Below, piece after piece: positions 1 through 30,855 of a stretch of 32,000 nt of DNA. This stretch comes from Candidatus Iainarchaeum sp. (GTDB lineage Archaea > Iainarchaeota > Iainarchaeia > Iainarchaeales > 0-14-0-20-34-12). Made by a program: the position numbers and the translations under genes. Below the pieces are notes generated by a model. It was not told the DNA's origin and made no database searches. It saw only the letters and a list, made by a program, of their open reading frames with translations. Numbering within the stretch: position 1 is the first letter of the stretch; each line of letters begins with the position of its first letter. Where the stretch lies: contig JAUSKK010000054.1 in the NCBI GenBank assembly GCA_030649345.1, positions 1-32,000 on the forward strand. Reading direction: 5' to 3'.

Positions 1-3000
1 GGTGTCACCATTAATGCATTGGTCTCTGGGCTCTTGTGTACATTGAATTCCTGTTTCTCCTGCACTAGTCATTAATCGTACTTTGACTTCATACGTGCCT
101 GCAGTTAAATCATTAAAATTAAAGTCTTTGCTGGAAGTGCTTACAACATTTCTGGTTTCTCTAATCGGTGATCCTGTTACTCCAACTCCGCTGCTGGTTA
201 CAGTTAATTCATAAGGTACTGCTGTTTCAATATCATTGTTGGATTTTAATTCAACTGTAATTTTTACATTATTGGTTCCAGTGATTGGAACTGCTTCTAC
301 TTTAGATACTGTTACATCTCTGGTGGTTGTAGATAATTCTTGAGTATTTCGTGAAGCTGTTCTTGAACTCGCTGGACAGCTGGCATTTCTTGTTGGTTGT
401 AATTCTTTTTCCAATAATTGAATTTTCTTTAATAATTCTATTGTGAATTGAGTTGAATCACAATAAATATTGTTTCTGTTTCCTTCATCGCATGAACCTA
501 AACCAATTCCAACTAATTGATTTCTAGCTTCTTCTATTGGATCAGGTATTGGAATTTCTACATTGGTTCCAGGAATTGTTGCAGTTCTAGTTGTTGAACC
601 AGTTACTAAAATGCTGTTCCATTTCCATGAATACAATACTTTAGGTGCTGCTTGGGTTCCTGTGCTTCCAATTCTGGATCCAATTCTGCAGCTTTCCAAT
701 CCCAAAGGAGTAGGCAAAGCTTCTTCTGGTTTGAATGAATTGAATTGGACTTTTATTTTTTCAAAATAAGATTGTTTGTCTTTAATTTTTTCTTGCAAGT
801 AAGCTTCTGTTATTTCTGTTTGAGTTGGATTGTCTTTACAGATTCCTGAACTAATTCCTTCAATTACATTATTTCCTGTTTCTTTGCTTTCTTCTGAAAT
901 ACTTTCACAATAAATATTTCGAATTTCTGTTCCTCCAACTTTTAAAATTCCTTTCAATGGAGTGAATGGATCCACTTGTTTTACATTGCCTGTATTTCTG
1001 AATTGGATTTCAAATTCATGCAATGGTTTTCTAAAGTCTGCTGGATTTGGTTTTTCTTTAGCTGTTCCAACTGCAATACTAATTCCATCAAAGGGCGGTT
1101 CGTCTATGAATCCAGTTGGATTATTGGTGTCTGGGATAGTTGCTAGTTCTGCTGCCAATAATTTAAAGTGTGCATTGCTGTCTAATTCTGGAATATCATT
1201 TACTATGACTGCTTTGGTTACTTCTCCTTCTCGGTCTGAAAATAAATAAGTTGTTGCTCCAGTAATTGCTCCTAAGCCAGCTCCAGCTAAAGGATTGGTT
1301 ATTCCGGCTCCAATTAATCCGCCTACGCCTCCCAACATGCTTCCAAATCCATTGCCTAATTGCTGTAAACCAAATCCTGAATTTTGTGCTCCCAATCCTT
1401 GGAAACCAGTTGGATTTTTTGACTGTAAATTAGCTAAAGTAACCAAACCTTGTCTGGCTCCAGTTGAAACTAAAGGTTCAGTTGCTGGGGCTGCTGTAGC
1501 TCCTGGAGTTTCTCCAACACATTTGTTGGCTGTACATACATTACTAGCACACCAAGTAGCATCTTGGCAGTCTTGGCCAGCTCCTAAGAAACAATAGAAT
1601 TTTGTGTCCGCAATTGCTGCTTGTGTGGCTCCTGCTCTTTTAGTATAATCTCCTTGTGGTGAAAAATTTATTTTTGAAATACATTTTAAATTAGCTGAAC
1701 TACTGGGATCACTACATTTTGCATTATCTGCTGAAATCCACCATATTCCACTTGTTTCATGGGGTGTATTTTGACATTCTGCTTGTAATTTTGCTGGTCG
1801 TGTAATCGTGCCAGGTGGACTTCCCCCAGTTGTTGCTATACAAACTCCGCTAGTACAAGTTGCTCCAGTTACACAAGTGTCTCCTGTGTTACAAACTGTG
1901 CCAATAGGTATATTTGTGCGTGCTGCTGGTCCGCCCCCTGGCAATCCTGTTCCTGGTAGTACTTCACAAAAAGAATCTCCTGCGAGTGGGTCGGAACATC
2001 TTCTGCCTGTAATTGATTCACATTCTTCTTCTATTTTGGTTGCAGTTCCAGTTGTTCCGCAAGTTTCAGTTATTAATTTTCCACCTGAACAATATTTTTT
2101 AGTTTGGCCGGCAGTAACTGTGCTCCCATTAATTTGACAGGTAAATTCTACTGAAGTAATTTCTGCACATTTATTTGTTGAAGAATCACAATAACTTGAA
2201 GCACATTCTGAATTATTTGTGCATGCTTCACCAGTTGCTTTTGGAGTTCCTGGCACTGCAATTGTTTTTTTACAAATATTACTTTCACAGGTTAAATCTT
2301 TTCCACAGTCTTCTTGTTTTGCACAAGCTTCTCCAAGTTTTTTAGTTCCTGCAGGTGGAGCTGTTGTTCCTTCTTTGACTTCTTGACATTTTCCGTCTTT
2401 CCATTCTGCGTTTTTGAATTTGTCACATTCTGCATCTGTGGTTGCAGCTGCAATAGCTGCTGCTCCGCCTAAAACTTTAGCTGTCTTGCTTCCGAATGAT
2501 CCAGCTAAGCCTGTCATTCCGCCAATTCCTGCACCTAAAGCCATGCGAGTACCCAAACAACTAGAGTCTGCTTCTCCGGATGCAATGCCTGCAATACTAG
2601 CTCCAGCTGAACCGCCGGCAATAATTCCTCCAGCAATCGCTACTCCGCCACCGACTCCAAAGCCGCCTAATAATCCTCCGACTAACATTCCTCCAGCCAT
2701 TCCGCCTAAAGAATTCCAGCCAAAGCCTCCACTTTCTTTATTACTCCAAAAACAAGAATTGTCGTAATGTACTTTGAATTGTTGTTCTTTTTTCACACAT
2801 TTATTAATGACTTTAGCTGTATCGAACGCGTCAAATGGTGTTGCTGGATCATCAAATACATCAAACTCGTATCTGGATAATTCAAAGCATTCATCGCCTG
2901 TGACTCTGACTCTTAATAATTTGCTTTCTCTGTAATCCAAAAATCCTGCCCCGCGAGCCAATACTGTAATTTGGTATTGTCCAGAAGTTTGACTCGGGTC

Positions 3001-6000
3001 TGTTAAAATTGTAAACATTTGTTTGTCTGTGCCTTGCAAGCTGGCTTGTTTTGTACTCAAATCTAATTCACTTTCAAATTTGAAGTCTACTGTTGCTCCG
3101 CAGTTTTTGGTTTCAATTTCAAAAGTAGTTTCTTCTCCTTTTTTGAGCTTAAAAAGATCTCTGTTGTATCGGATACAGTCTCCTAAACTGACTACTCCAA
3201 TTTGGGTTGTTAAAGAATCGCTTAATTCTTGTACACTGGCTGAAGTTGGATTTTCTGCTTTAATTTCAATAGTAGCTTCTCCTAAACCAGAGACTCCGCC
3301 GTCGGGTGTAAATGTTAATATTGCTTCAGTGCGCGAGTCTTCCAATACTCTGGGATTTACTAATTTGAAATAAGATTCGCGTAATTCAACTGTATCATTT
3401 CCAATGGTTAAAGAATAATTTCCTAATTTGTTTCCTTTCCAATGAACTTGAGCCTGCAAGTTCTTTAATTCAATTGGAATTCCTTCGATTGTACAATTAT
3501 TTTCAACTCTTAACTGCAAGCTTACTGGTTGTCCTTCTGTGGCTGCATCAGTCCAAGAATCTTTATCTACATTTAAGCATGCTGGATTTTCTACTTCTCC
3601 ACCAATTCCTATATTAATCAATACAGGTGTTTCTGTAATCCATTGTTCTCCTAAAGCACTTGCAATAATTACTAAATTTCCTTGCAAGTCTACGGGTGAA
3701 TTTAACTGTAATCCTAAATCGCTTAAGGCTAATCGTACATCAATATTCACTGAACTTTTTGCACTAATTTCTCGGCCAGTTAATTGACTAAAAATATATG
3801 CAATAGCCTTGGGTTGGTCAATTAATCCTTTTAAGTCTCCGCGTAAATCTACAGTATCAATGGTTACTCCAAATTCTGTTGCATTTCGTACATTGATAGT
3901 TCGAGTATTTTCTTTGATTGTTTTTGGATTCAAAGCATACCCCAATCTTTCCGGTGTAACTTTTACAACTGTAGTGTCTGCAGTTAAATCAACCACTAAA
4001 GGCTTGTAGTCTGGCTTTACTAAATAAAGTTGGATTGTTTCTCCGGGTCGAATGGCTGGCAATCGAATTCTAGCAATGCCCAATTCATTACTGGTTTCTG
4101 TAGTTGTAGCAATTATATTTCCGAATCTGTCTTTTACATAAACTTGTGTTCCTTGAACTTCTACACTGGTTCTTTTGTTTTTAATTTTCAAAACTAAAGT
4201 TTGTTCTACTCCTGTAGACAAAGTTGGCAAATCTTCGGAGAATGAAGAATTTTCTTTTTGGAATTCTATAGTAAATTCTTCTCTGGCCAAAACTTGTACA
4301 TTCAATACTTTACTGTATACAATTCTATTCGCTGATTTTAATTGCAAAGTTACTTGAGAAGTTGAAGGTTGTTCTGTGAGTAAATCAATTTCTCCAGTAA
4401 TTCTTGAATTTGGCTTTACATCTCCAACCAAGTCTGTAAAGTCGGAATCAATTCCATCAAATCCAGTTAAACCTCGAGCATGTGCTAATTCTCTTCCTGT
4501 AACATCGCGTACTTTGTATCCTAAAATACTCGAAGTTTCAGTGGGTTCAGCTATTCTGATTTGTGCTCCAAAAAAAGAATCTCTTTCACTTTCAGAAGTA
4601 TTCACTAAAGTAAATTTGAGTTTGTATTGTCTTCCAATATTTGCACTAAATCCATTGTTGGCTGAAACCATTAAATCCGATTCAGTGTCTAAAGCTGTAG
4701 CACTAAAGCACCAAATTCCAATACAAGTGCTTTCTTCTCCTGTACTGAATTGTTCTTCATTGGTGGCTGCTCGTAAATCTGCAAAGCTAGCTGTACTTGC
4801 AAAGCTTGCATCAGATGGCACTCGTACTAAACTTGTTCCTTCTTGAGCCCAAGCTCTCCAGTATAAAGATAATTGTTCATCCAATCCAGCAGTTTCTTTG
4901 ACTTTGAGTACCACATCTAAATTCATTAATCCAGTAAATGTTTGAGGATAAACAATATTCACCCATTTGCTTCCGTCTTTGCTTAAATTGCTTGAATCTT
5001 CCAACAATGCCAAAGCATCTGGTCTGTCATGCAAACTAGTTCCTTTCCATAAACTGGCTCCAGCTGGAACACTTACACTTTTCACAAACCATGGATCTGT
5101 TTCCATTTTTTCCCCTGGGCTAGTGCTGGCTGTAGGCACTCCAGTTCTTGCATGCAATCCAATTTGAGTGTAAATTTTATTGGATGGAATTCGTATTTGG
5201 AATCTTGCAGTATATTCTTCTCCAGGTGTAACATTTTGGACTCTGGTTCCATCTTTAAATAATCCAATAAATTTAGCTTGTAAGTCTCCGGAAATAATTT
5301 CTGGTTCTAATACAACAGTGTGTGTGCTTAATTCTGCTGGATTAATTTCAATCGGCTGAGAAATATATCTGGTATACGAAACACTTCTGCTGGGGTCATT
5401 AAAATTGCTTAAAATATAAACTTTGGTTCCGCCCGGAATAGTATCAAACAAAATACTTCCATTATTATCTGTTGGAGTAAATCCTTGAATAAGTTCATTC
5501 GAGTAAGAATCTCGTACACTGACTAAAGCAAAAGGTACTGCATGTCCGTCTTTATCTTGGACATTTACTTGCAAACTTCCATTCGGAATTTCTAAAACAA
5601 CAGTATAAACAATTTCTCCAGCTCTATTTTTTTGGAATTCTTGTACATCACTCCATCCGCTTGCTAAACCTTTGAATGCAAATACTTTATAGGTTCCATT
5701 ATCTACTGGAACAAATTTAGCAGCACCATTCACATCAGTAATTAATTTATCCGGACTTCTGGGTACAGCAAATCCTTGGCTGTCAAATAATCCAACCACT
5801 GCATTGGCAATTCCTTTTCCATCCGAATTTACTACTTTTAATTTTAAAGTTGCACATTCAGTTCCAATACATTGTTCTAAATTAATTCTTGTAACAGTTT
5901 CTCCGGGCGCGACATTAATAGGTCCTTTAGGTTTGTATCCATCCTTGGTTAAATAAACAGTAAATCCAGTTGTTTTGTCTACAGCAAATTCTGCAATTGC

Positions 6001-7140
6001 ATTATTGTCTAAACTTGTAGTTCTAAATTCTCTTTGATTGCTTCCATCAAATAATTTTACACTCACTCCTTCCAAAGCTCTGTTGCGTGTATCCAATGCT
6101 TGTATTTTAATTCGTCCAACTACATTTTTTTCCAATTCTAATTGAACAGTTTGAGTTCCGTTGGCAGTAATTTGTACAATATCACTGGTTTGACTGGAGT
6201 ATTCTCCTGTGCCATTGCTTTGCACACAATAAGTTCCTGCTGGAATATTAAACGAAACTTGTCCGGCTGTAGAATATTCTACACTTTCATACAATCCAGG
6301 GCAAGCAGCAAATCCATTGTCTGCTTTAAATAAATTTACAGAAATACTTTCAGTGGTTAAAGGTCTTTGCAGGCCAGCAGGATCTTGTGCTGTTAAATTT
6401 ACAATTAATGTTCCGGTGTTTGGAATATCTTCAGCCAATAAAATTTCTCCGCCGTCTGCAATCGGTTGTCCATCAACTCCCAAAAATCCAGCGACTGCAT
6501 TGACTGTTGCCCTTAGTTGTCCGCATTCTTCTGTTTTTTCTACTTCAAATCCATCAAAAGGCTGTATTTGATTGTAAATCGTTGCAGGAGCTGTATTAGA
6601 TCCAGAGCAAGAAAAAGTTACAGTTAAAGGAACTCCTGTTAATAATTGCCCGTTATTTTTTACATAAAATTTAATGGTTGTTCCAGTACTTTCTGGAATT
6701 AAAACAATTTCGCTTTGCAAAGATTGTTCTACAACTTCAATTCCTGCAATAGTATTGTATCCTGTTTTAGTTACTGCATAATTTACTGAAGTTCCTTTGG
6801 GTACTTGAATTTTTTCAGTAATTCCTTCAGCATTGGTAATTTTTGTAATTGGTTCAGTTAAACCATCGTACGAAAAAGTTACACTGGCTCCAGCAATAGG
6901 ACTGCCTTGGCTGACTGCTTTCAAACTATAGTCTACTGTATTTCCTGGTCCTAAAACTGAAGCAATTAAGAAGACTCCTAAAATAAGAATTAAAACTAAA
7001 AATACTGCAAAACTTGGAACAACTCTGTCAATGGGTTCAATGACTTTATAGATTGGGATGCGGGCATCAATTTTATCTAAAAAACCGTACCATTTTTCTT
7101 CCAACTTGAAATAAAACTCTTTTAAAGCTTCAAAAACCAT
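1..7140 (-). CDS. Giant membrane-anchored surface protein, paralog 1 (5'-complete; C-terminus runs off the left edge; 2380 codons in window)
   Basis: ATG at 7140-7138 with GAGGA 7 nt upstream. The track lists no terminated minus-strand ORF starting here, so the frame (codon first bases at multiples of 3) must stay open to nt 1. Hand translation gives MVFEALKEFYFKLEEKWYGFLDKIDARIPIYKVIEPIDRVVPSFAVFLVLILILGVFLIA..., the same N-terminal motif plus TM helix as the two complete giants. Hand-translated stretches at 5820-5641, 3540-3421, 2769-1261 and 471-441 are all in frame. They show a beta-sandwich repeat (GKGIANAVVGLFDSQGFAVPRSPDKLITDVNGAAKFVPVDNGTYKVFAFKGLASG) and paralog matches. The + strand ORFs at 563-6571 are antisense shadows. 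Confidence 0.85.
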   Translation of the reverse strand, partial: MVFEALKEFYFKLEEKWYGFLDKIDARIPIYKVIEPIDRVVPSFAVFLVLILILGVFLIASVLGPGNTVDYSLKAVSQGSPIAGASVTFSYDGLTEPITKITNAEGITEKIQVPKGTSVNYAVTKTGYNTIAGIEVVEQSLQSEIVLIPESTGTTIKFYVKNNGQLLTGVPLTVTFSCSGSNTAPATIYNQIQPFDGFEVEKTEECGQLRATVNAVAGFLGVDGQPIADGGEILLAEDIPNTGTLIVNLTAQDPAGLQRPLTTESISVNLFKADNGFAACPGLYESVEYSTAGQVSFNIPAGTYCVQSNGTGEYSSQTSDIVQITANGTQTVQLELEKNVVGRIKIQALDTRNRALEGVSVKLFDGSNQREFRTTSLDNNAIAEFAVDKTTGFTVYLTKDGYKPKGPINVAPGETVTRINLEQCIGTECATLKLKVVNSDGKGIANAVVGLFDSQGFAVPRSPDKLITDVNGAAKFVPVDNGTYKVFAFKGLASGWSDVQEFQKNRAGEIVYTVVLEIPNGSLQVNVQDKDGHAVPFALVSVRDSYSNELIQGFTPTDNNGSILFDTIPGGTKVYILSNFNDPSRSVSYTRYISQPIEINPAELSTHTVVLEPEIISGDLQAKFIGLFKDGTRVQNVTPGEEYTARFQIRIPSNKIYTQIGLHARTGVPTASTSPGEKMETDPWFVKSVSVPAGASLWKGTSLHDRPDALALLEDSSNLSKDGSKWVNIVYPQTFTGLMNLDVVLKVKETAGLDEQLSLYWRAWAQEGTSLVRVPSDASFASTASFADLRAATNEEQFSTGEESTCIGIWCFSATALDTESDLMVSANNGFSANIGRQYKLKFTLVNTSESERDSFFGAQIRIAEPTETSSILGYKVRDVTGRELAHARGLTGFDGIDSDFTDLVGDVKPNSRITGEIDLLTEQPSTSQVTLQLKSANRIVYSKVLNVQVLAREEFTIEFQKENSSFSEDLPTLSTGVEQTLVLKIKNKRTSVEVQGTQVYVKDRFGNIIATTTETSNELGIARIRLPAIRPGETIQLYLVKPDYKPLVVDLTADTTVVKVTPERLGYALNPKTIKENTRTINVRNATEFGVTIDTVDLRGDLKGLIDQPKAIAYIFSQLTGREISAKSSVNIDVRLALSDLGLQLNSPVDLQGNLVIIASALGEQWITETPVLINIGIGGEVENPACLNVDKDSWTDAATEGQPVSLQLRVENNCTIEGIPIELKNLQAQVHWKGNKLGNYSLTIGNDTVELRESYFKLVNPRVLEDSRTEAILTFTPDGGVSGLGEATIEIKAENPTSASVQELSDSLTTQIGVVSLGDCIRYNRDLFKLKKGEETTFEIETKNCGATVDFKFESELDLSTKQASLQGTDKQMFTILTDPSQTSGQYQITVLARGAGFLDYRESKLLRVRVTGDECFELSRYEFDVFDDPATPFDAFDTAKVINKCVKKEQQFKVHYDNSCFWSNKESGGFGWNSLGGMAGGMLVGGLLGGFGVGGGVAIAGGIIAGGSAGASIAGIASGEADSSCLGTRMALGAGIGGMTGLAGSFGSKTAKVLGGAAAIAAATTDAECDKFKNAEWKDGKCQEVKEGTTAPPAGTKKLGEACAKQEDCGKDLTCESNICKKTIAVPGTPKATGEACTNNSECASSYCDSSTNKCAEITSVEFTCQINGSTVTAGQTKKYCSGGKLITETCGTTGTATKIEEECESITGRRCSDPLAGDSFCEVLPGTGLPGGGPAARTNIPIGTVCNTGDTCVTGATCTSGVCIATTGGSPPGTITRPAKLQAECQNTPHETSGIWWISADNAKCSDPSSSANLKCISKINFSPQGDYTKRAGATQAAIADTKFYCFLGAGQDCQDATWCASNVCTANKCVGETPGATAAPATEPLVSTGARQGLVTLANLQSKNPTGFQGLGAQNSGFGLQQLGNGFGSMLGGVGGLIGAGITNPLAGAGLGAITGATTYLFSDREGEVTKAVIVNDIPELDSNAHFKLLAAELATIPDTNNPTGFIDEPPFDGISIAVGTAKEKPNPADFRKPLHEFEIQFRNTGNVKQVDPFTPLKGILKVGGTEIRNIYCESISEESKETGNNVIEGISSGICKDNPTQTEITEAYLQEKIKDKQSYFEKIKVQFNSFKPEEALPTPLGLESCRIGSRIGSTGTQAAPKVLYSWKWNSILVTGSTTRTATIPGTNVEIPIPDPIEEARNQLVGIGLGSCDEGNRNNIYCDSTQFTIELLKKIQLLEKELQPTRNASCPASSRTASRNTQELSTTTRDVTVSKVEAVPITGTNNVKITVELKSNNDIETAVPYELTVTSSGVGVTGSPIRETRNVVSTSSKDFNFNDLTAGTYEVKVRLMTSAGETGIQCTQEPRDQCINGDT

Positions 7141-7239
7141 TCAAATTTCCTCGGATTTTAAAACTACATCAACCCATGCTCACTGGTTAATTTAATTCAA
7201 TTAATTTGTAATATAATATATGTAATAAAGTAAAGAATC

Positions 7240-7252
7240 CTTAATAAAGCTT
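7240..7252 (-). promoter_or_regulatory. BRE/TATA-like box AAGCTTTATTAAG upstream of giant 1
   Basis: Minus-strand AAGCTTTATTAAG lies 100-112 nt upstream of the giant 1 ATG. Near-identical boxes occur at 7766-7781 and 18689-18701. It is not mapped experimentally. Confidence 0.4.
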
Positions 7253-7260
7253 ACGCCCAG

Positions 7261-7749
7261 TTATTTTGCTAAATTTAAGGTTATAATAGGCAAGCTGGGA
7301 ATTAAGAATTCTAAACCAATTGCCAATATTATTGCAACTAGTAAAATTAAACCAATTTTTTTAATTTGAGTTTCCAATCTGGTATTTTGCTTTAAATCTT
7401 GCTGAATCCAGTAACCCAATTGCATTCCAGCATAACACGCAATCAATAAAGGCAAGACCCGAATTAAATAAGTTAAATTTCCAGCAAAAGTATTTCCTTC
7501 ACTGATTCCAAAAACCAACAAAACTAAGGGTGCTAAATATCCTTGAAATAAACTGCTTAATCCAAATACTCCTAAAACCAACAACGCATTGTCCAAGAAA
7601 TTGAGTTGAGTGAGTTTGATTTGGAAATCAAATTGAATTAAGTTTGTGAATATGGCTAGTACTGCAATGGCATAAAACAATACTCCAATGAGCAAGTATA
7701 ATCGTGTGACCAAGCTTTGAGCTGTATTCTTTTCTTCAATTAAACTCAT
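7261..7749 (-). CDS. Small polytopic membrane protein, family not recognised
   Basis: 162-aa ORF in the track with 4-5 hydrophobic helices (LYLLIGVLFYAIAVLAIFTNL; ALLVLGVFGLSSLFQGYLAPLVLLVFGI; LIRVLPLLIACYAGMQLGYWI; IGLILLVAIILAIGLEFLI). An AAGCTTTAAATAAAAG box sits 17-32 nt upstream of the ATG and there is no SD, so the transcript may be leaderless. Confidence 0.75.
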   Translation of the reverse strand: MSLIEEKNTAQSLVTRLYLLIGVLFYAIAVLAIFTNLIQFDFQIKLTQLNFLDNALLVLGVFGLSSLFQGYLAPLVLLVFGISEGNTFAGNLTYLIRVLPLLIACYAGMQLGYWIQQDLKQNTRLETQIKKIGLILLVAIILAIGLEFLIPSLPIITLNLAK

Positions 7750-7765
7750 GTATAAAATTAGGTTT

Positions 7766-7781
7766 CTTTTATTTAAAGCTT
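7766..7781 (-). promoter_or_regulatory. BRE/TATA-like box AAGCTTTAAATAAAAG upstream of the membrane-protein gene
   Basis: The spacing to ATG 7749 (17-32 nt) fits an archaeal TATA box in front of a leaderless or very short-leader mRNA. It shares the AAGCTTTA core with 7240-7252 and 18689-18701. Confidence 0.45.
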
Positions 7782-7800
7782 TTACTTAATTTAATTGAGG

Positions 7801-7920
7801 TTATTTTCTGGTGTATAACTCAGATCTGTGTTTTATTAGTATTTTTTTCATAGCATATCCTTGATTCATTTTTTCAACCAATATTTGAACAGCTGCTTGT
7901 CTTTGTGTTTCATTTTTCAT
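7801..7920 (-). CDS. Possible 39-aa small basic protein immediately downstream of mazF
   Basis: Hand translation gives MKNETQRQAAVQILVEKMNQGYAMKKILIKHRSELYTRK*. The ATG lies 4 nt after the mazF TGA, and GAAAGTGA just upstream could act as a weak SD. The ORF is below the track's size cutoff and I recognise no homology. Confidence 0.3.
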   Translation of the reverse strand: MKNETQRQAAVQILVEKMNQGYAMKKILIKHRSELYTRK

Positions 7921-7924
7921 GGTA

Positions 7925-8260
7925 TCATTCACTTTCCAATAGTTTGACCAGATTTTGAATTATTTGTTTTGTTTTTTGTTCTTTTGTATGCCCTGCTTTA
8001 TATAAAATAAGAGATTGATCTGCAGTAAACAATTTATTGATTCTTACATTGCTGTTTTGCTTAAGTGTTCCTTGTGCAAATTCTTTTTCTGACAAAGGCA
8101 CTGCATAACTGTCGCTTGTTTCTTGGCTGGTGATTTGGCAGAGAATTAAATCGTCTCCTTTTAATGTTTGAATGACAAATGCAGGACGTTTTTTTGTTGT
8201 AGATAAGTCAGAAAAAGGAAATGGGACAATTACAATATCTCCTTTTACAAATCTTTCCAT
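7925..8260 (-). CDS. mazF: MazF/PemK-family type II toxin (mRNA interferase)
   Basis: 111 aa. MERFVKGDIVIVPFPFSDLSTTKKRPAFVI matches the PemK/MazF hallmark (GDIv.v.FPfsd...KkRPalVl). The gene overlaps the upstream antitoxin gene by 16 nt and ends in TGA. Confidence 0.9.
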   Translation of the reverse strand: MERFVKGDIVIVPFPFSDLSTTKKRPAFVIQTLKGDDLILCQITSQETSDSYAVPLSEKEFAQGTLKQNSNVRINKLFTADQSLILYKAGHTKEQKTKQIIQNLVKLLESE

Positions 8261-8523
8261 GCTTGATCTTCCTTTTTAGACAGCCACTCTTTGGCTAATT
8301 TTTTTTCGCTTAATATTGCTGAGCTCATTTTTTCATTGAAACTATTTGTTTTTCCAAATACTGCAGATGCTACTTCAGATTCTTTTTTTATAATAATTTC
8401 ATTATTCCTTTCAATTAAAACCAATGCTTGTCTTCCGTTTAAGTTCAAGTCTTGTCTTACTTCTTCTGGAATAACTATTTGCCCACGGTCGCTCATAACC
8501 ACAGACCTAATACGTACATTCAT
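8245..8523 (-). CDS. mazE: AbrB/MazE/SpoVT-family antitoxin
   Basis: It has the swapped-hairpin motif SDRGQIVIPEEVRQDL near the N-terminus and a C-terminal tail ...AKEWLSKKEDQAWKDL typical of AbrB-type antitoxins. I prefer ATG 8523 (MNVRIRSVVMSDRGQ..., 92 aa) to the track's GTG 8604, because TATA-like A/T boxes lie at 8541-8570 inside that extension. Confidence 0.85.
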   Translation of the reverse strand: MNVRIRSVVMSDRGQIVIPEEVRQDLNLNGRQALVLIERNNEIIIKKESEVASAVFGKTNSFNEKMSSAILSEKKLAKEWLSKKEDQAWKDL

Positions 8524-8540
8524 ATCAATCAACTCAGTAA

Positions 8541-8570
8541 GTATAATATGTTTAAACTTATTTAAATAGT
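8541..8570 (-). promoter_or_regulatory. Candidate mazEF promoter (TATA-like boxes)
   Basis: The minus strand reads ACTATTTAAATAAGTTTAAACATATTATAC, 18-47 nt upstream of ATG 8523. Assigned by position and A/T composition only. Confidence 0.3.
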
Positions 8571-8620
8571 TTTGCGTGTTATTGGAGTATCTGGATGTAC
8601 TCACTAGTTAAAAATTAAGA

Positions 8621-8680
8621 AAATAGAAATTCTTAGTCTTTTTAGTTGACTAAGAATTTTGTGCATTCCAGACAATTTCT
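8621..8680. repeat. Direct repeat copy A: relic of the 3' end and terminator of a giant gene
   Basis: By hand alignment, 56 of 61 columns are identical to 9473-9533 (4 mismatches, 1 indel). Read on the minus strand it gives ..EIVWNA then a frameshift and a premature TAG, a decayed copy of the last ~13 codons of giant 2 plus its downstream hairpin. Confidence 0.8.
8630..8656 (-). terminator. Perfect 9-bp stem hairpin (ttcttagtc-N9-gactaagaa) inside repeat copy A, followed by a T-rich tract on the minus strand
   Basis: TTCTTAGTC (8630-8638) is the exact reverse complement of GACTAAGAA (8648-8656). The minus-strand RNA would be followed by UUUCUAUUUUCUUAAUUUUU. The homologous hairpin at 9482-9508 is imperfect and straddles the giant 2 stop codon. 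Confidence 0.5.
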
Positions 8681-8697
8681 ATGCAGTTAAATTGTAG

Positions 8698-8747
8698 TTC
8701 TATAATTAACTATAGAAATGCTTTTATACTATAGTATTCTATAGTAT
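8698..8747 (+). promoter_or_regulatory. Promoter/operator region of the RHH-PIN cassette (TTCTATAG-type repeats plus TTTTATA box)
   Basis: Inverted repeat ttctata(8698-8704)/tatagaa(8711-8717). Direct repeat ctatagtat at 8729-8737 and 8739-8747, spaced 10 bp apart. A TTTTATA box lies about 33 nt upstream of ATG 8760, and GGTGG lies 4 nt upstream of it. Confidence 0.45.
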
Positions 8748-8759
8748 ATAGGTGGTTTT

Positions 8760-8960
8760 ATGTCTGTGATGCAAGCTATTCCAGCAAAATTAACTTCGAA
8801 ACTGGTTAAAGAAATGGATGTTTTGGTAAAAGAAGGATTGTATTCCTCTCGGAGCGAAATTTTGAGAGATGCTGTTCGTCAGCTAATTTATAAAAAACAA
8901 TTGAAGCAGTTAACTCAGGCTGTTGAAGAAGATATTGAATGGGGTTTGCATGGCAAATAA
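8760..8960 (+). CDS. Ribbon-helix-helix (CopG/Arc/MetJ-type) antitoxin
   Basis: 66 aa. AKLTSKLVKEMDVLVKEGLYSSRSEILRDAVRQLI has the beta-strand/helix/helix pattern of RHH antitoxins. There is a GGTGG SD, and the stop overlaps the downstream PIN start (ATGGCAAATAA). Confidence 0.85.
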   Translation: MSVMQAIPAKLTSKLVKEMDVLVKEGLYSSRSEILRDAVRQLIYKKQLKQLTQAVEEDIEWGLHGK

Positions 8961-9456
8961 AGAAACAGCTGTTTCAGATACTGGCCCAATTTTGCATTTA
9001 TCTTCGATAGATTCTATTTCTACATTTAGTGTTTTTTCTAAAGTTTTTGTTTCTGAGATTGTTTTGTTTGAATTAAAACAGAATGATTTTAATTTTTATT
9101 TTTTTAAGAAATATAATTTTACAAAACTTTTTTTGAATCCTGATTTTAGACGAAAGTCTAAGCTTTTTCTTCTGGAATACGGTTTGCATTTAGGCGAAAG
9201 CAGTACTTTGGCTTTGGCTTTGCAGGAAAAAATTGAGTTATTTTTAACAGATGATTTGGATGCCCGGGAGACTGCAAAACGTTTGGGTTTAACTCCGGTA
9301 GGTTCTATCGGGATTCTTGTACGTGCATTTCGTGAAAAAATTTATTCCAAACAAGAAACTGTTCAAAAATTACTGGATTTAAAACAAAAAGCAAATTTTT
9401 TTGTAACTGATTCTTTAATTCAAAAAGCAATACTTATTGTAGAAAACTTCAATTAG
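8950..9456 (+). CDS. PIN-like (DUF3368/COG2405-type) nucleic-acid-binding toxin
   Basis: I moved the start to ATG 8950 (MANKETAVSDTGPILHL..., 168 aa), which overlaps the RHH stop by 11 nt. Acidic positions sit in VSDTGP, LGESST and LTDDLDA. GLTPVGSIGILVRA resembles the DUF3368 PIN-like family. The stop is TAG. Confidence 0.8.
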   Translation: MANKETAVSDTGPILHLSSIDSISTFSVFSKVFVSEIVLFELKQNDFNFYFFKKYNFTKLFLNPDFRRKSKLFLLEYGLHLGESSTLALALQEKIELFLTDDLDARETAKRLGLTPVGSIGILVRAFREKIYSKQETVQKLLDLKQKANFFVTDSLIQKAILIVENFN

Positions 9457-9472
9457 ACTTCTTTCAATAAAA

Positions 9473-9533
9473 AAATAGAAATCCTTAGCTTTTTTAGTTG
9501 ACTAAGAATTTTTCTGCATTCCAGACAATTTCT
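9473..9533. repeat. Direct repeat copy B: the functional 3' end of giant 2 plus its hairpin
   Basis: Matches 8621-8680. It contains the last 13 codons (..TEIVWNAEKFLVN*) and the stop of giant 2. Confidence 0.8.
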
Positions 9534-12500
9534 GTAGCTGTGTCTGTAGTATTCATGCACAATTTTTCTGTTTGAATATCTTCAACCATTTGTTTTAATC
9601 CAGCTGAATATGGGTTGGTCAATAAGCTAACTGCTCCTCCGCTGGTTCCACTGATTGTAGGCGTTGTTGTTAGATTGCTTTGCAATTGGATGGATTGCTC
9701 TGAGCACAATACTAATAAATTTCTGGCATTAGATTCTTTGGGGACATATACTACTCCAATTACTGAAGCTGTTCCACTGGCGATGGTTACTTGAGCCGCA
9801 TTTTCTTTTACAATATTGGCACAAGTTGTTCTAGCAGATTCTCGGGTAAAGTCTTTGACTAATTCTGTTATTGTGTTTTTCTGATCTTTGTCTGTTTTGA
9901 ATCCAACTAATTTATCTGAAGGCAAAGCTCCAGGTAAATGACTGGTTGTTGCAGATTCTGTCAAAGTCAAGTATACTGTATTTGCTTTGGATGTTGTATT
10001 TAATAATTTTATTCCGCTTACTGTGCTTGGACTAAACAATAAATCTACTGCGTTTGCTTGTTTGGTTAAAGTTAATAATTTTCCATTTTTCACGTCTTCA
10101 AATAATTGTTTGTATCCTGTTTGTTTCAATGCCAAAGTACTTCCAGTTCCTAAAGTTTTAGCTAAAGGATTGGCTCCATCTAATGTTAACTTGAATCCTT
10201 CTTCTATGCTTACACCGTATCCTTCTCTTGTGTCAGTGCCTGTCATTCCTAATTCTCCATCAAATGGCAAACTGAACAATAAGTTCTTGGCGTATTCTGT
10301 TGTATTTGCTGTGTCCATTTCTGCTAATGTTTGAGCTAAACCAAATTTGACTGTTGGGCCTGCAGGTGTAACAGTCCAATTAGTTATATTTACTGCTACG
10401 ATTTCATCTAATTGTACTGTGTATAATCCTGAATTCTTTCCTGGACTCATTTTTTTGGCAGAAACTTCGTCATCGCTTGTTAATATAGTTCCTTCTAATT
10501 TGACTTGTTTAAATGTCCAGTCGCTATTGACATTATTTCCTGGATACGTTGAATCAAAGTGTCCTGTGAAGTTTGCGCTTGTTTCTTGTCCGTCTCCAAT
10601 TAAGTAAGCCTTAAATGGTTTCAAGTCTACTCCACTGGGCAAATCGCTTGTTGTGTAATTGTCTGCTTGCTCAATTAATAATGCATTAATTTGAGCTGAA
10701 TTGCTTGGAAGTACTTTGTAGGTTGGCAATACTTCTTCTAAAGAATTATTTAAAGCATTCAAGGCTGTGATCCATTCATTGGTTGTTCCTTGAATGGTTA
10801 ATCCACTAATTGTACTTTGGCATTGGTCTATTGTTCCATTATTGCAGGTGCCTGCATTTGTGCCTGTTTTTTGCAATACATCCAACAGTCCTGAAACCAA
10901 TTGAGAATATTCTTCATAGGTCATTAAATATTTGTTTTGCAATCCAGTTGGAGCGCTAGCTGATTGTAATTCCGCTACACTTGTTTTGATTGTATTTAAT
11001 ACTGGACTATCTGTGTTGGTTAATGTTGTGCCTTCAAATACTAAAACAATTGGAACGCTGTCTTGCATGTCGTAACATTCTTGGACTCTTGTGCTTACAT
11101 TGGTTAAATTTGTTTTCAGTGTACTAATTTGAGTTCCAGTATCTGTTGCACTAACTCCTGTTAAGGTTGCAATTAAGTCATTGCCATTACAAGTTGTTTC
11201 AGTTCTTCCTTGTTTGAATCCTGCTTTCAGTAAACTTGCTCCTTTGACATAGAATGCTTGTGCTTTATTCTCTTCATCTTTCAATGTGATAGTTTTCTTG
11301 GTTAAAGAATGTAATTCAATTGGTTGTACTTGGGTACAAACTTCTTTGAAGTTAACAGAGTCTGCTGCAGCCAATCTGGCTTGCACTACTTTGACTGCTT
11401 TTTCTTGCAGGTCTTTTACTTTTTTAGTCATGCTTAAAGTGAATTGAGTTGCATCACAAAATTTGTTTTCACAAGTTTCTGCTGTAAAGTCTGCTTCTGC
11501 CCAAGTGAATAATAATTTATCCAAACCATATTTGGTTACTGCGTCTGTTCCAGTTACTGGTGCATCGGCTGCTTTGGCTAATGCAATATCTCCAACTGAA
11601 CAATAGAATGCACTTCGATCTGCTTTGGCTGCTGCTGTGGCATTACAGCGTTTTTCTTTTTCACTGTTAAAGAATTCTAAGTTTGCTTTTTCTAATTTTG
11701 GAATACTTAATGCGTGTGTTGTTTCAAAGTCAATGGCTTTTTGGTAATCTGTTTCCCAATTAGGTACTAGTCTATTGAATTCAGTTGTATAATCTCTAAT
11801 AAATGCATCAATTTCTGCTTGGACTCCTGTTTTGGTGTATCCTGTACAATCATCGCTGAGTAATTTTTTCATTAAAGCATTCCATCGATCAGCTAATGCA
11901 TCTGGGAATCCTGCTGTTTTCATTTTTTGTGTTCTTGCATCCACCAATGCTTCTGTGTTGGCTGCTTCTGGCGGGCATTTTTCTACAAAGATTTTTTTCA
12001 TAGCTTCTTTCATGATTTGTTTTTCTGTAGGATTCCATAAACTTGCGTCAATTGCATCAATTTCTGCCAGCAATTTATCTAAGTCAGCTTTTTGTTCTGC
12101 AAAGGTTGTTCCAGTAAATGGACAAACTGTGTGAGCTGTTTCAGTAAGTGATTTTAATTTTGCATACAATGTTGGATTGGCTATTTTAATTTTATTTAAT
12201 ACTGGTGCTGCTGCTAATGCTCTAGCATCGGCTGCTGCTTTTTCTGCACAAGCTTTTTTGCCTTGGTCAATTAATTCATCTGCTTTTGCGCCGAATACTG
12301 TTGAATTCGTTGCCTTATCTGCTGCATCCGATGAAGCTAAAGCGACTTGATTCATTAACTGTACTTTTTCAGTATTTGGATCTGGTTTACAAACTGTTGG
12401 ATTGACTGCAGTTCTTAATGCATCTAATACTGTTTTGTAATTTGCAGGGAATCCTTTGGCTTTTCCTGTGTTCAATAACCATTGGTATGGATCTGTGCAT

Positions 12501-15500
12501 TTGTCCTTGTAATCTTGTTCTAATTTAGTAACTTTTGCAACTGCTTCTGCACTTTCTGTAGCTGCTTTTACTTTTAATTTAGCAATATCTGCTAAACTGG
12601 TTGCAGTACAATCAAATCCGCTATTTTTATTTAATGCTTTATCTAAATCATCAATTTCTTTTGCAATTCCTGTTAATCCTGTGGGTGGTGTTACCGGTGT
12701 TGCAGTTGTACATTTCAATTGTTCTCTGGCTGTTCCAATAACTAAATTAATTGATTTTTTGTTTTCGTCTCCAGGATATTTTGTAAGCAATGCAGTTTCT
12801 TTTACTTTCAATTGATCGCAGTTAACTTTTCCTGCTATAATATCATCTGCTAATTGTTTGAGTTCAGTTTTTAATTCAGTATCAGTTACTTTTTCTGCTT
12901 CTGCTTTAGCTGCTGCTCCAGCCAATGTTTTTCCAATCTCTGCTGGTGTTCCTGTGGTTGTTGCACAGAATGTATCTAGTGTTCCTGCTTTTTCTTGAGC
13001 TTCCACTTGTTTGACTGTAACTCCTTTATTCAATACTTTGACTTTAACTGGCAATTGAAGAATATCTGAAGTTCCTGGATTGTTTTGTGTTCTGGTAATT
13101 CTAAATCTGGCAGGCGATCCTGATTCAGATAAATTAATGACTGCACAATTTTGTTTCATTGCACTTCGATCAATGGTTAACAATCCATTGTGTCCTTCGT
13201 CTGTGACTCCGAATTGCAATTTGACTCCAGAATCATCTGTATAGCTTCCGTCTCCTTCGAGTGTTAAAAAGTCTCCAGTTCCACATACTGGACCGTCAGC
13301 ACATTTTCCTCTTTGAGCTACATCTGCTCTATTGCGTGGAATTTTCATTAAATAATCTGTAACTTGGTCACTTCTCTTGAATGCATAAGCATCCGAGCCA
13401 TTAGTGAAATGTAATTTGTCATTTAACCATCCGTCTCTGGCTGTGACATCAAAGTAATCTTGCTTGGTGCTCGACGTTTTTGCTCGCAAACAAGCAGCTG
13501 GCTGGATGTCAATATCTCCGGCTTGCATGACTGTGTCAAATACTCCGAATGCTTGATAGGGATCTACAAATTGTACATCAAATAATTCTACTTGAGGTCC
13601 AGTTGGAGTAAAGTAAGGTACTGTAACTCTTCCTGGACTAATAATACTGTGACCAAATCTGCTTGCACTGATTCTTAAATTTCCAACTTGCTGGTTGACA
13701 GAACCTTCAGTGAATCCAGGGAATTGATCAATCACTTGAGGATTATAGTAGACTGAGAAATGCAATACTTCGCTTCTGGATTGTCCTGATCCGCCTTGAA
13801 TAACTGCAGGTGTTGTATTAATGTAACTGATTAAAGGACAAGCTCCTAAATTATACAAACCTCGGCCTGGAATCATTTGTTGTCCAGGTAAAAGTCCTTG
13901 CTGTTGCCCTTGGAATCCTTGTTGTTGGAATTGCTGCTGGGCTGGTACTGTAACTCCGCAAGATTGGTTAGGCATTCGTAACATGTCGGATGTTGCAACT
14001 GGATAACATTCAATGTTTTGTAATCCAAAGGTTGGATCTAGTTTGTATCCGAAGTCTACACAATTGTTGGTAATTTTTCCTGTACTGGCAATACTGGTTA
14101 CAAAGTCTACTTGGAAAGTACTAGGACTTAATACTGGCTTGCACATTTGTTCTACTTCGCCAGCTCGCATAACTGTAGCTTGTAATTCGCCTAAACCAAT
14201 AAAGCTAGTTTCTGCTCCTAAGATTCTTCCATTAATACTTACAGGATATCTTCCAGAAAATATTGTTGGACTAACTGTTACTTCTGCTTCTTGTTTAGGC
14301 TGCAATTCTATTCCTGGTTTTCCTACTCTTAATCGTGAATCTGGTTCAATTTTTAATTCTACGGAAACTTCACAATTATTTCGTATCAAAAATTTTCCTT
14401 GACTGACTGGATTATTGGGGTCAGTGCAGGAAAAAGAATTTCCAAACAATGGACTTTGCATTCCATAGCCTTGTTGAGATCTGTAAGGTGAATCAAATAC
14501 ACTGGTTGGTCTATTGTATAAAGTATTTTGGTATTGATCGTATGGACTGTAATTGGCGCTGCCATAAATGGGTTGTCCTGTTTGTGTAGGTTGCGTTCCT
14601 ACTGTTCCTGCATATCTTCCGAAGTTGGTTGGATATTGTCCTTGGGGGATTCCTTGTCCACCGTACAATCCGCTAAATCTTGGGTCTGTCATTCCTTGAT
14701 TGAATCCAAAAGAATTCTGCATTATTCCAGAACCTAAATCATAACCACAAGTATACAATTGCAAGGGTTGTCGTTCAATGATTTCTACACATTGACTTAA
14801 TTGACTGACAATGGCGTCTGTTTCTAATTTGGCTGTTAATGTTTCTGGCCCAGCTAAAGTTTGATGGCTTCCGGAGATAATTAAAGTAGGCTTGGCTTTC
14901 GCACTTTTAATTTTTTTGTCTGGAATAAAAGTAAATCGTACAGTTCCTTCTTTGCTTTCTGGAAATACTTGTGCTAATTTTTGTTCTTGTTCATTTAAGG
15001 CTACTGCTCCTTTGTCTTTGAATAATTCGCTTTCAATTCTCATTTCACCTAAAGGTTGTGCTGTTTTCCAGTCAATTTTGGCTGAAATATTTTGCAAAGA
15101 AATTGGAATTCCTTCCACTGTACAAGAATTTTTGATTTTAACATCAATGCTTTCTTGAGCTGTTTCGGTTGCAAACTTCCAAGTACTTGGAGTAAATGTT
15201 AAACAGTCTGCTAAATCTACTTCGTTTCCTAAAAGGATTCTGAATTTTAATGGAATTCGTGCAGTCCAAGTTTTTCCTACTGTGCTATTTGTAATTTGGA
15301 AAGCTAACATTCCATCGATTGTTTGAGTTTCTGTAACCAATTTTCCTTTCTCCGTTAATTCAAATAAAATACTGGCATTACTGTCATGGTTTACATCTAA
15401 TTTGAGTCCTTCAATTTCTTTCAAGTTTTTAGCTTGAACCAATTCAGTGCTTTTAGAATCTAAAGTAACTTTGCTGATGGTTAAAGGCAAAGGAGTAATA

Positions 15501-18628: not shown

Positions 18629-18688
18629 TTAAACACCAAAGTTAACTTTGTAACTTTACTTTATAACTATAATATTTACCTTATTAGT

Positions 18689-18701
18689 CTTTTTAAAGCT
18701 T
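18689..18701 (-). promoter_or_regulatory. BRE/TATA-like box AAGCTTTAAAAAG upstream of giant 2
   Basis: Lies 61-73 nt upstream of ATG 18628, in the 134-nt spacer after the pilin-like gene. It has the same core as 7240-7252 and 7766-7781. Confidence 0.4.
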
Positions 18702-18762
18702 CTCTTACTGGTTTTTGTGCATTTTTCTACTAATATATTAGTCTTCTTTATATTATATATTA

Positions 18763-20184
18763 TTATGGCCTGTTTTCGCAAGTAAATGGTCCACTAGGCG
18801 CTCCGTTTGTTTGACAATTCCAGTGTGTATTTGGAGTAAATCCTTGAGGCAAAATATCCAATGGATTACTTCTCATTTCTATTTTGTATTCTGTATCCAA
18901 TAATTTATTCACTTTGTATAAATCATTTTCTTCTTTGATTCCAACTTGTACTCTTAAAATATTAATTCCTGCGCATTGTGCACTTCCAGTTCTATTGTTT
19001 CCATAATAATTTTCTGCAGTTGGAGTATTGGATACTTCGGGAGTAATTTTTATTCCAACTTTGCTTACGCCTACTGTACATTCTCCTGTGCTAGCATCCA
19101 ATGCAATTCCAAAATCATTTCCTACTCCTTCAATTGGAATATTTTTGGTTTGAATTTGTGCTTGTACTTTTTGACAAGTTTGAAATTCAGTGTATTCATG
19201 CAAGGCATTGTTGGCAGAATTTTCTGCACTGAATTGAAATTGAATTGGATTGCCGCGAACACTGGGTCCAAAAGTAACTCCTGCATTGGGTGCTCCAGCT
19301 GAACTTTCTCCAATACAGGCATTGTTTCCAAGATTTTGTTGTGAAACTATTGCAGAATATTTATCGCACGTATTTGGAATGCAGGCTCCCAAAGCCCAAG
19401 TGTCTAGTTCTCCTCCAGTTCCAGAAAAGTTTTCATTCATGACTCCGCTATTGCCTTGTGGATCTGCAATTGCTCGAGCATACGTTAATGCTTTAAATAT
19501 TCTTAACGGAACATATATTCTGACATCATTGTCCGGCAAAATGGGATCTTTTAATATTCGTCCAGTGCTTTTGTCTTCCACTACAATTTTCGGCAAATTT
19601 TCTCGGTCTGTTGGAGTTAATGAAGATAATTTTAAGTTTACATAAAATGTTCCAGTCGGGCATTCGGTATCTTTATCTTCTCCTAATTTTCCAGTGCATT
19701 CAATGACTTCAAAAAATTTATTTTGTTGATCAATGGGCAAGGTTGGATCCGGCAAACTGTTTTGTACAATGGTTCTCATGGAGTTTCTGAATCCTTCAAT
19801 GTTTTCTGCTTTAATGGAATAGGTTGAAAACGAAAAACCAAATCCTTGATATAATGCAATTAAGAAATTTGCAGCAGTATCTGCAAAAGCTGTTCTTCCT
19901 GTAGTGGTTCCAAAAGTTCCGTTGGCAAAATCATTCACCAATAAATCCCAGTTATCCCAGTTGGTTACAGTGAATACATTGTTGGGGTCAGATAAATATT
20001 CATGCATTTGTTTGCGGATTCCGAAATTAAAAATTTGAATAGCGTCAGCTCTTGTTAATTCAGCTACACTTTCCAGTCTGGATTGTTCTTGGATGTCTGC
20101 AATAATATTCTGCGTATTGTTTTCGGTTTGAATCATGGTATTGACTAAGACTGCAGTTAATACAATTAAAATCATGCCTACCAA
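18763..20184 (-). CDS. Secreted/anchored Cys-rich protein with a type IV pilin-like N-terminal hydrophobic segment (true start probably upstream at 20217, see findings)
   Basis: 473-aa ORF in the track, TTG start. After the N-terminal helix (VGMILIVLTAVLV) comes a polar helix NIIADIQEQSRLESVAELTRADAIQIF, then a region of about 400 aa with 14 Cys residues, mostly falling into short-spaced pairs (CTGKLGEDKDTEC, CIPNTC, CQTNGAPSGPFTC). The in-frame codons between the TAA at 20220-20218 and the TTG read I-N-S-K-A-F-N-L-F-T-A. Confidence 0.8.
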   Translation of the reverse strand: MVGMILIVLTAVLVNTMIQTENNTQNIIADIQEQSRLESVAELTRADAIQIFNFGIRKQMHEYLSDPNNVFTVTNWDNWDLLVNDFANGTFGTTTGRTAFADTAANFLIALYQGFGFSFSTYSIKAENIEGFRNSMRTIVQNSLPDPTLPIDQQNKFFEVIECTGKLGEDKDTECPTGTFYVNLKLSSLTPTDRENLPKIVVEDKSTGRILKDPILPDNDVRIYVPLRIFKALTYARAIADPQGNSGVMNENFSGTGGELDTWALGACIPNTCDKYSAIVSQQNLGNNACIGESSAGAPNAGVTFGPSVRGNPIQFQFSAENSANNALHEYTEFQTCQKVQAQIQTKNIPIEGVGNDFGIALDASTGECTVGVSKVGIKITPEVSNTPTAENYYGNNRTGSAQCAGINILRVQVGIKEENDLYKVNKLLDTEYKIEMRSNPLDILPQGFTPNTHWNCQTNGAPSGPFTCENRP

Positions 20185-30791: not shown

Positions 30792-30855
30792 ACAGTTCAC
30801 ATTTCACTAAGTATAATTAATTAAACCTAATTCCCTTAATTAATCTAATGTTTAG

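Follow-up and report, generated by a model that had tools for sequence, protein, structure and literature searches.

We found that a predicted type II toxin-antitoxin (TA) addiction cassette of 787 bp, made up of an RHH antitoxin gene and a DUF3368/PIN toxin gene, probably came to lie behind the gene of a giant surface protein (giant 2) by insertion with long target duplication. The cassette stands in a 32 kb window of Candidatus Iainarchaeum sp. (contig JAUSKK010000054.1, positions 1 to 32,000; 35.8% GC), by which we mean the whole stretch of DNA analyzed, and coordinates throughout are those of this window unless another locus is named. The 3' end of giant 2 is duplicated around the cassette, the copy that remains on giant 2 is the original one, the insert between the copies holds the RHH-PIN unit and nothing else, and the same architecture recurs at other cassettes of the family. 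The parts concerned, in order along the window, are:

8616-8680 (65 nt), minus strand: copy A of the repeat, between the mazE promoter and the putative RHH promoter
8681-8759 (79 bp), plus strand: left end of the insert, promoter/operator-like, as read from the sequence
8760-8960, plus strand: RHH antitoxin gene, 66 aa (Pfam RHH_8 at 4e-7 and RHH_1 at 1.2e-6, both above cut-off)
8950-9456, plus strand: DUF3368/PIN toxin gene, 168 aa, with an 11-nt overlap with the RHH gene
9468-9533 (66 nt), minus strand: copy B of the repeat, comprising 12 codons and the stop of giant 2 (9494-9533) and 26 nt of T-rich 3' flank
9494-18628, minus strand: giant gene 2, encoding a CarboxypepD_reg/Ig-like surface protein of 3044 aa, whose 3' end is the duplicated target

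The two copies lie in direct orientation and are identical in 60 of 66 columns with a single 1-nt indel, so that the ~60-bp direct repeats described by a sequence-only reading of this DNA (56 of 61 columns) are real and slightly longer than it had reported. Their local alignment score of 49.5 compares with a maximum of 13-15.5 for shuffled flanks, in a BLAST comparison of the window with itself no direct repeat but this pair is significant (E = 1.5e-14), and no third copy of the 65-bp element occurs within the 32 kb. The repeats stop sharply: beyond copy A there is no giant-like sequence, and similarity ceases 12 codons into the giant gene. Translated on the minus strand, copy B ends in ...TEIVWNAEKFLVN and the giant 2 C-terminus is ...IVWNAEKFLVN, whereas copy A reads ..CIEIVWNAQNS*, a 1-nt deletion having put KFLVN* into another frame; the claim that copy A keeps EIVWNA and is then frameshifted is correct in both parts. 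Copy A, displaced and non-functional, duplicates the terminal 12 codons of giant 2 together with its stop codon and 3' flank. Because the independent Logan assembly (contig of SRR13727527) is base-for-base identical across 5847-18960 (13 kb), this arrangement is no assembly artefact of one data set.

Each copy carries a hairpin, located as follows:

8627-8638 and 8648-8659: arms of a perfect 12-bp inverted repeat in copy A, with a 9-nt loop
9479-9490 and 9500-9511: arms of the copy B hairpin, which straddles the stop codon (9494-9496) and has U-runs after it

The inverted repeat of copy A duplicates the hairpin that closes giant 2, and it folds well both as DNA (z = -3.4) and as minus-strand RNA (z = -3.2), its stem spanning 33 of the 65 nt in the middle third of the repeat and leaving the repeat ends unpaired. 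It had been described as a perfect 9-bp hairpin; perfect it is, and the stem is 12 bp long. The stem of copy B forms in the minus-strand RNA only, through two G-U pairs, and the plus strand folds no better than shuffles. Copy B starts 11 nt past the PIN stop, such that it serves both convergent genes, giant 2 and PIN.

The direction of the duplication follows from the homologues of giant 2. A HMMER search with its last 400 residues against 1.84 billion representatives returned 13 distant homologues, all with matches that extend to the last residues of query and subject. Their C-termini read ...LYWNGENYLLNK, ...LLWNKEKLLSG or ...LAWNKDKLLSG*, with the longer forms TKLYWNGENYLLNK, IELLWNKEKLLSG and IELAWNKDKLLSG*, and have with giant 2 the motif ...WNxExL... 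in common. Because the homologues share this C-terminal WN motif, copy B is the ancestral gene end and copy A the duplicate, which bears out the earlier identification of copy B as the real end of giant 2 with a hairpin straddling the stop (in the minus-strand RNA). Since the residues of copy B are an ancestral gene end, the repeat is no terminal sequence brought in by the cassette.

Between the copies, the 787-bp insert holds a promoter/operator-like region, the RHH gene and the DUF3368/PIN gene only, as had been noted from the sequence. Upstream of the RHH gene lie the following:

8698-8704 and 8711-8717: inverted repeat TTCTATA/TATAGAA
8722-8728: TATA-like TTTTATA
8729-8737 and 8739-8747: two direct CTATAGTAT repeats
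8750-8755: AGGTGG

Homologous cassettes have a TATA box and a palindrome immediately before the RHH ATG, and we infer that 8681-8759 acts as the promoter of the RHH-PIN pair. The window PIN protein scores 22.3 bits against DUF3368, under the Pfam cut-off of 27.3, and PF11848 is present in 38 of 38 PIN homologues, the named ones of which come from metagenome-assembled genomes of Pacearchaeota and Nanoarchaeota; the acidic residues E41, E83, D101 and D102 are invariant in the PIN family alignment. The window pair is 45-49% identical to its nearest relatives, and because the best PIN homologue is only 46% identical we regard the window cassette as a divergent member of the family, and the window, in view of these homologues, as most likely DNA of a DPANN-type archaeon. 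By family membership, the pair is a predicted type II TA system. Makarova and colleagues reportedly predicted in 2009 that COG2886 (RHH-like) and COG2405 (PIN, DUF3368) form a type II TA family, and the window pair resembles that family in having two small overlapping genes with an RHH-type antitoxin upstream of a PIN protein with conserved acidic residues; in the gene pair itself we see no difference, the window pair being a divergent member.

Two observations on the cassette family stand beside these. Measured against the pair of locus L017, RHH proteins of the family show 85-91% identity and PIN proteins 57-62%, the antitoxin thus being far better conserved than the toxin in the RHH-DUF3368 family, the reverse of the usual assumption for TA pairs. 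L017 (1776-3492) is also the closest relative of the window cassette, with a divergently oriented mazEF beside RHH-PIN and an 87-aa gene between them, and its four proteins (mazEF and RHH-PIN) are 42-49% identical to their window counterparts. We rejected mazEF plus RHH-PIN as a co-inherited four-gene block, as mazEF lies beside the cassette in 0 of ~55 other contexts; the layout shared by L017 and the window may be a coincidence or may mark a preferred TA hotspot.

The architecture seen in the window was then evaluated at homologous cassettes, which we gathered through exact-protein look-ups for PIN homologues and a pattern scan of JGI metagenome contigs (DPANN-like). Flanks were long enough in 56 distinct contexts, and in these we aligned the 470 nt that precede the RHH gene to the 490 nt that follow the PIN gene. 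Flanking direct repeats far above the shuffle maximum appeared in 8 of the 56, the window included, with repeats of 30-107 bp at 90-100% identity around inserts of 747-971 bp, and these eight loci represent 7 independent events, L040 and L052 being one. The repeat lengths are:

L070: 107 bp
window: 66 bp
L052: 55 bp
L040: 51 bp
L065: 48 bp
L096: 47 bp
L021: 35 bp
L066: 30 bp

Among control positions of the same geometry in the same loci, 9 of 475 (1.9%) reached a score of 25 (Fisher p = 1e-4), and several of these control matches are themselves small cassettes between repeats:

L096: an AbrB-PIN_3 pair between repeats
L040: a weak UPF0175-like protein (24.3 bits, cut-off 27.9) and a 181-aa protein without a Pfam match
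L026: a DUF5678 and aspartyl-protease pair

Five events have duplicated a convergent gene at its 3' end, the genes being those for ribosomal protein S7, threonyl-tRNA synthetase (ThrRS), glutamate dehydrogenase, Nre and giant 2. The right-hand copy in L052, L065, L066 and L021 is the 3' end of S7, glutamate dehydrogenase, Nre_C and ThrRS, respectively, with the Pfam domain extending to the last residue in each, and the repeat begins 0-6 nt past the stop codon in these four loci and 26 nt past it in the window. The repeats are unrelated in sequence between loci, and no significant similarity is seen beyond the repeat ends, bar a marginal left extension in L021 (p about 0.04). At the DNA level, cassette similarity spans 86 loci with about 55 different flank groups, and homology between loci is confined to the stretch from ~30-50 nt upstream of the RHH start through about the PIN stop, with no conserved termini, att cores or inverted repeats shared across the cassette loci. 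In 9 of the 29 contexts with a convergent gene, the stop codons of PIN and of that gene meet at -4 to +4 nt.

Some of these loci also reveal what happens to the repeats and to the gene ends they contain. Copy A, cassette, copy B and a 37-codon S7 fragment are 92% identical between L040 (3582-4658) and L052 (1218-2241), and the L040 unit lies in an unrelated TA-rich island from which an intact S7 gene is absent; because the S7 fragment has been transplanted there, fragments of host genes travel with the cassette. L003 has the same cassette-ThrRS joint as L021 but without copy A, and comparison of L021 copies A and B with the L003 ThrRS end (38, 35 and 38 of 45) is uninformative on donor versus recipient origin. 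Four sites in L040 and L052 share their state in A and B within each genome, yet differ between the genomes. Likewise, L066 and the 77%-identical orthologous context L093 both hold A and B, and the L066 copies are 30/30 identical. As an aside on L066, where the copies lie at 2400-2429 and 3185-3214, copy A provides the stop codon of the upstream gene.

At L070 and L096, the flanking element is local, with 3-4 copies in 5 kb, and stands between consecutive TA cassettes:

L070, 254-5251: array of four two-gene units, consisting of two AbiEii pairs, RHH-PIN, and a DUF7557/VapB-like gene with ParE
L070, 1856-1898, 3518-3650 and 4620-4728: copies of the element (36-110 bp)
L096, 1470-4561: four copies of a 58-140 bp element, including the 5' end of an SCP2 gene

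The AbiEii genes of L070 are each preceded by a ~200-aa gene without a Pfam match, presumed to be an AbiEi-type partner; the first AbiEii was checked against Pfam and the second pair was judged by sequence similarity alone. The cassettes of L096 are AbrB-PIN_3, a weak TrmB-like 181-aa gene and RHH-PIN, and they have an integron-style look with no attC features.

The sequence-only reading had proposed that a small self-contained cassette was inserted with duplication of its target, and the original status of copy B, the sharp repeat ends, recurrence above controls, and the absence of mobility genes and attC-like sites from the window all favor it. On this explanation, the RHH-PIN cassette with its own promoter/operator would have been inserted tail-to-tail directly behind giant 2, duplicating ~65 bp of target sequence, which comprise 12 terminal codons, the stop and the T-rich 3' flank with its hairpin. 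Copy B would have stayed on giant 2 and remained functional, and copy A would have been pushed beyond the insert and acquired its frameshift later. The joints would have been made by host break-repair or recombination rather than by a transposase, integrase or integron, along one of two routes. In route (a), a staggered double-strand break would capture the cassette and the long overhangs would be filled in, giving copies that are identical at birth. In route (b), a fragment or circle consisting of the cassette and a short neighboring conserved gene end would recombine with the resident gene end, and an illegitimate event would make the remaining joint; the copies would then differ from the start, and conserved gene ends would be naturally targeted. 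The hitch-hiking S7 fragment and the cassette-ThrRS joint shared by L003 and L021 make route (b) somewhat likelier than (a). The cassette would be lost whenever the copies recombine, and the persistence of the scar around addiction modules would be understandable because such a loss would be penalized, and hence counter-selected, by a stable toxin that outlasts its antitoxin. An empty-site junction would be expected to read ...CTAGTTAAAAAT + single repeat + GTAGCTGTGTC..., with the mazE-mazF pair forming the left flank, and the junction of a circle, were the cassette to excise and re-integrate, would read PIN 3' end + one repeat + ATGCAGTTAAATTG...

Several observations weigh against an insertion of this kind, or at least against its having been a single event at each locus. 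The signature is present in only 14% of contexts. Copies A and B in the window differ at 9% of columns, and A/B identity is 90-92% in 7 of the 8 loci, a uniformity that is odd if the events were independent and differ in age. The shared A/B states of L040 and L052, and the identity of the L066 copies despite ~23% divergence between the genomes, point to gene conversion or repeated events, not to a one-off scar. Some cases, L070 and L096, are insertions between pre-existing repeats or arrays. Finally, no empty site (the giant 2 end directly joined to the mazE upstream region) was found among GTDB representatives and JGI contigs, neither of which include the source genome, or through exact-protein look-ups. 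Exact look-ups of MazE, MazF, a 162-aa protein of the window and giant 2 returned nothing or the same Logan contig, and a word-index protein search with the last 500 and the last 150 aa of giant 2 returned nothing, the query itself included; these negatives are weak because the look-ups missed MazE, MazF and the 162-aa protein although the Logan contig lists those genes, and because the word index missed giant 2 itself.

The signs of exchange between copies bring up a rival explanation, in which the cassette plus gene end was duplicated locally in tandem and the first cassette was then deleted, leaving copy A; in a close variant, the cassette was excised by recombination between the repeats and re-integrated homologously. 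The concerted evolution in L040/L052 and L066/L093 does mean that copies recombine, in L021 a weak similarity may reach into the 3' end of PIN (p about 0.04), and L003 has the joint without copy A. Tandem duplication plus deletion, however, would have to proceed in two exact steps seven times over, at independent loci; in 7 of 8 loci (the window included) the boundaries are sharp and copy A has no remnant of a cassette next to it; and the origin of the first duplication is left unexplained, so we judge this account unlikely. We consider it quite unlikely that the cassette landed by chance between members of an older repeat, dispersed or local (a terminator family, for instance), in which case its flanks would carry no information on its arrival. 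Examples are L070 and L096 with their 3-4 element copies within 5 kb, Furuta et al. recognize a class of 'chance insertions between repeated sequences', and the inspected part of this genome is 32 kb. Against it, exactly two copies of the element exist in those 32 kb, and a scan with the 22-nt core TTTTTAGTTGACTAAGAATTTT gave one chance match (Parasutterella) among GTDB representative genomes and 0 in JGI metagenome contigs, which speaks against the common dispersed repeat that the sequence-only reading had named as its own refutation. More than half of the repeat is moreover the coding end of a single-copy giant gene, and the C-terminal end of the other giant gene that ends inside the window is quite unlike that of giant 2.

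An integron-like origin would make the repeats attC-type sites and the RHH-PIN pair a cassette moved by an integrase acting in trans, as in clusters of attC sites lacking an integrase (CALINs). Integrons and integrase-less attC clusters do exist in Nanoarchaeota and other DPANN, copy A has a strong hairpin, and L070 and L096 resemble arrays of TA cassettes separated by repeats. Yet RYYYAAC...GTTRRRY pairs 40-150 nt apart number zero in the whole window on either strand, the hairpin of copy A covers the middle third of the repeat with unpaired ends, the repeats of other loci fold no better than shuffles, and the repeats are coding 3' ends of S7, ThrRS, glutamate dehydrogenase, Nre and giant 2, unlike attC sites; there is also no intI-like open reading frame (ORF) in the window. 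On consensus and folding we rejected this reading, which we consider very improbable. A Pfam search of the window genes found no integrase or transposase domains, in agreement with the sequence-only reading. A transposon, insertion sequence or MITE was rejected on account of a flank inverted-repeat score of 12 against a shuffle maximum of 13-15, variable duplications of 30-107 bp and the lack of a transposase, and an integrase-mediated element on account of the unrelated repeats of the eight loci, which share no att core, and the lack of an integrase. The alternative that the sequence-only reading had itself offered, copy A as all that is left of a fourth giant paralogue after the deletion of its body or its replacement by TA genes, draws some plausibility from the three giants in tandem, which suggest turnover of the gene family. 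It is scarcely credible given that the giants are 22-25% identical to one another, and that in their N-terminal halves only, whereas A and B are 91% identical including the non-coding 26-nt 3' flank; similarity ends abruptly 12 codons into giant 2, and the same architecture is found at single-copy housekeeping genes elsewhere.

Among known systems, insertion with long target duplication, our preferred explanation, has been described for restriction-modification (R-M) complexes of bacteria (Nobusato et al. 2000, Gene 259:99; Furuta, Abe and Kobayashi 2010, NAR 38:2428, PMC2853133). The R-M insertions are flanked by direct repeats of 46-423 bp and lack mobility genes, their mechanism being unknown with double-strand breakage suggested; in one example a 46-bp repeat overlaps 15 bp of HI0105, and no archaeal case passed the screen (PMC2853133). 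The criteria of Furuta et al. were a complete module and no other mobility gene in an insert of <20 kb, direct repeats >30 bp that do not belong to a multi-copy repeat of the genome, and a single-copy target at an empty site in a related genome, and the window cassette is a complete module in an insert below 20 kb between repeats longer than 30 bp. The likeness extends to an addiction-type module without mobility genes between locus-specific direct repeats >30 bp that copy the target, some of which overlap the 3' end of a neighboring gene in the R-M cases as well. The differences are that the cargo here is a type II RHH-PIN TA pair and the host a DPANN-type archaeon, that R-M insertions are defined by a genome with the empty site whereas copy B is known here as a gene end from distant homologues, and that we see signs of concerted evolution between copies and local arrays. 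Our literature search turned up no account of such an event around type II TA cassettes or from archaea.

Archaeal CALINs occur in Nanoarchaeota with TA genes as their commonest cargo (Ghaly et al. 2022, PMC9668308). The present loci share with integron cassettes and CALINs (PMC9668308) the small promoter-bearing TA cassettes, similar brackets of 50-140 bp, the arrays and the lack of a linked recombinase, but differ in having no R''/R' consensus or element-spanning imperfect palindrome and in repeats that are locus-specific gene ends. SGI1 integrates at the trmE 3' end (PMC6531882), and such elements regenerate the 3' ends of their target genes. Integrative elements of this type, including those at tRNA genes, resemble the window in that their attL/attR direct repeats include the target 3' end and leave the gene intact; they use an own or borrowed integrase and a fixed att core, whereas here no integrase is present and the target varies in sequence and length from locus to locus. 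Another comparison is with the pdif modules of Acinetobacter plasmids, which are small, often TA pairs, and are moved by host recombinases without a mobility gene of their own. Their pdif sites are conserved 28-bp XerC/XerD sites, usually inverted, whereas the repeats here are direct, longer and locus-specific copies of the target. A further known case is a ParDE-like module of Microcystis aeruginosa PCC 7806 between two identical 152-bp direct repeats (PMC7935541), also a TA pair directly downstream of a host gene between long direct repeats with a short inverted repeat. It is a single case from a repeat-rich cyanobacterium, its repeat lies 14 bp past the stop such that the gene end is not copied, and family-wide recurrence is not shown there.

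These comparisons bear on a largely unexplained matter, the movement of TA and other addiction modules from one chromosomal site to another when they carry no mobility genes. Long target duplication has so far been documented for bacterial R-M modules only, and the window and seven related loci present such a scar around classical type II TA cassettes in DPANN-type archaea, a scar that preferentially preserves the 3' ends of genes at the landing site. With its variable duplication lengths, hitch-hiking, concerted evolution and arrays, the family offers many events for choosing between a staggered break and a homology-anchored route. For annotation, short frameshifted 'gene ends' beside TA pairs are to be read as insertion scars, not as decayed paralogues. 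A broader idea, which we regard as possible but doubtful, is that DPANN TA cassettes of several families spread by a recombinase-independent cycle, possibly assisted by the PIN nuclease. Such a cycle would begin with insertion at gene 3' ends duplicating 30-110 bp, continue with recombination between the copies (concerted evolution) and with excision as a circle carrying one copy, and close when the circle re-integrates, either at the gene end it came from or at an orthologous one; over several rounds, arrays of integron-like appearance but with neither attC nor IntI would result, as in L070 and L096. The interest of the loci would be higher if the DPANN TA pattern reflects an organized cycle of insertion, excision and array-building, and if the cycle is true it would provide a natural system for the mechanism behind the 25-year-old phenomenon of long target duplication.

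The wider neighborhood of the cassette contains three giant genes in the same orientation, and between giants 1 and 2 lie the gene of the 162-aa protein, a membrane protein, then mazF, mazE, the RHH gene and the DUF3368/PIN gene. The neighboring features are:

1-7140, minus strand: giant gene 1, left end off the window, CarboxypepD_reg/Ig-like surface protein
7925-8260, minus strand: mazF, of the mazE-mazF pair (7925-8523)
8245-8523, minus strand: mazE, with a TATA-like box for mazE within 8524-8615
21294-30800, minus strand: giant gene 3, CarboxypepD_reg/Ig-like surface protein

The cassette has a GC content of 30.5% compared with 35.8% for the window, and other small genes here are low too, so that low GC is only weakly informative as a sign of foreign origin. 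Beginning 4 nt past the mazF stop, a 39-aa ORF MKNETQRQAAVQILVEKMNQGYAMKKILIKHRSELYTRK (7801-7920, minus strand) may give the mazEF unit a third gene that has escaped annotation. A BRO-N domain protein is encoded between giants 2 and 3 (20785-21174, minus strand), and BRO-N genes also occur near the cassette in L011-L016, which hints at virus- or mobile-element-related neighborhoods. In L011-L016 (5574-8486), the KH/beta-CASP (aCPSF1-like) gene downstream of the cassette has a LAGLIDADG intein (1141 aa), and the corresponding KH/beta-CASP gene of L022-L025, which share the upstream side with L011-L016, is without the intein (631 aa).

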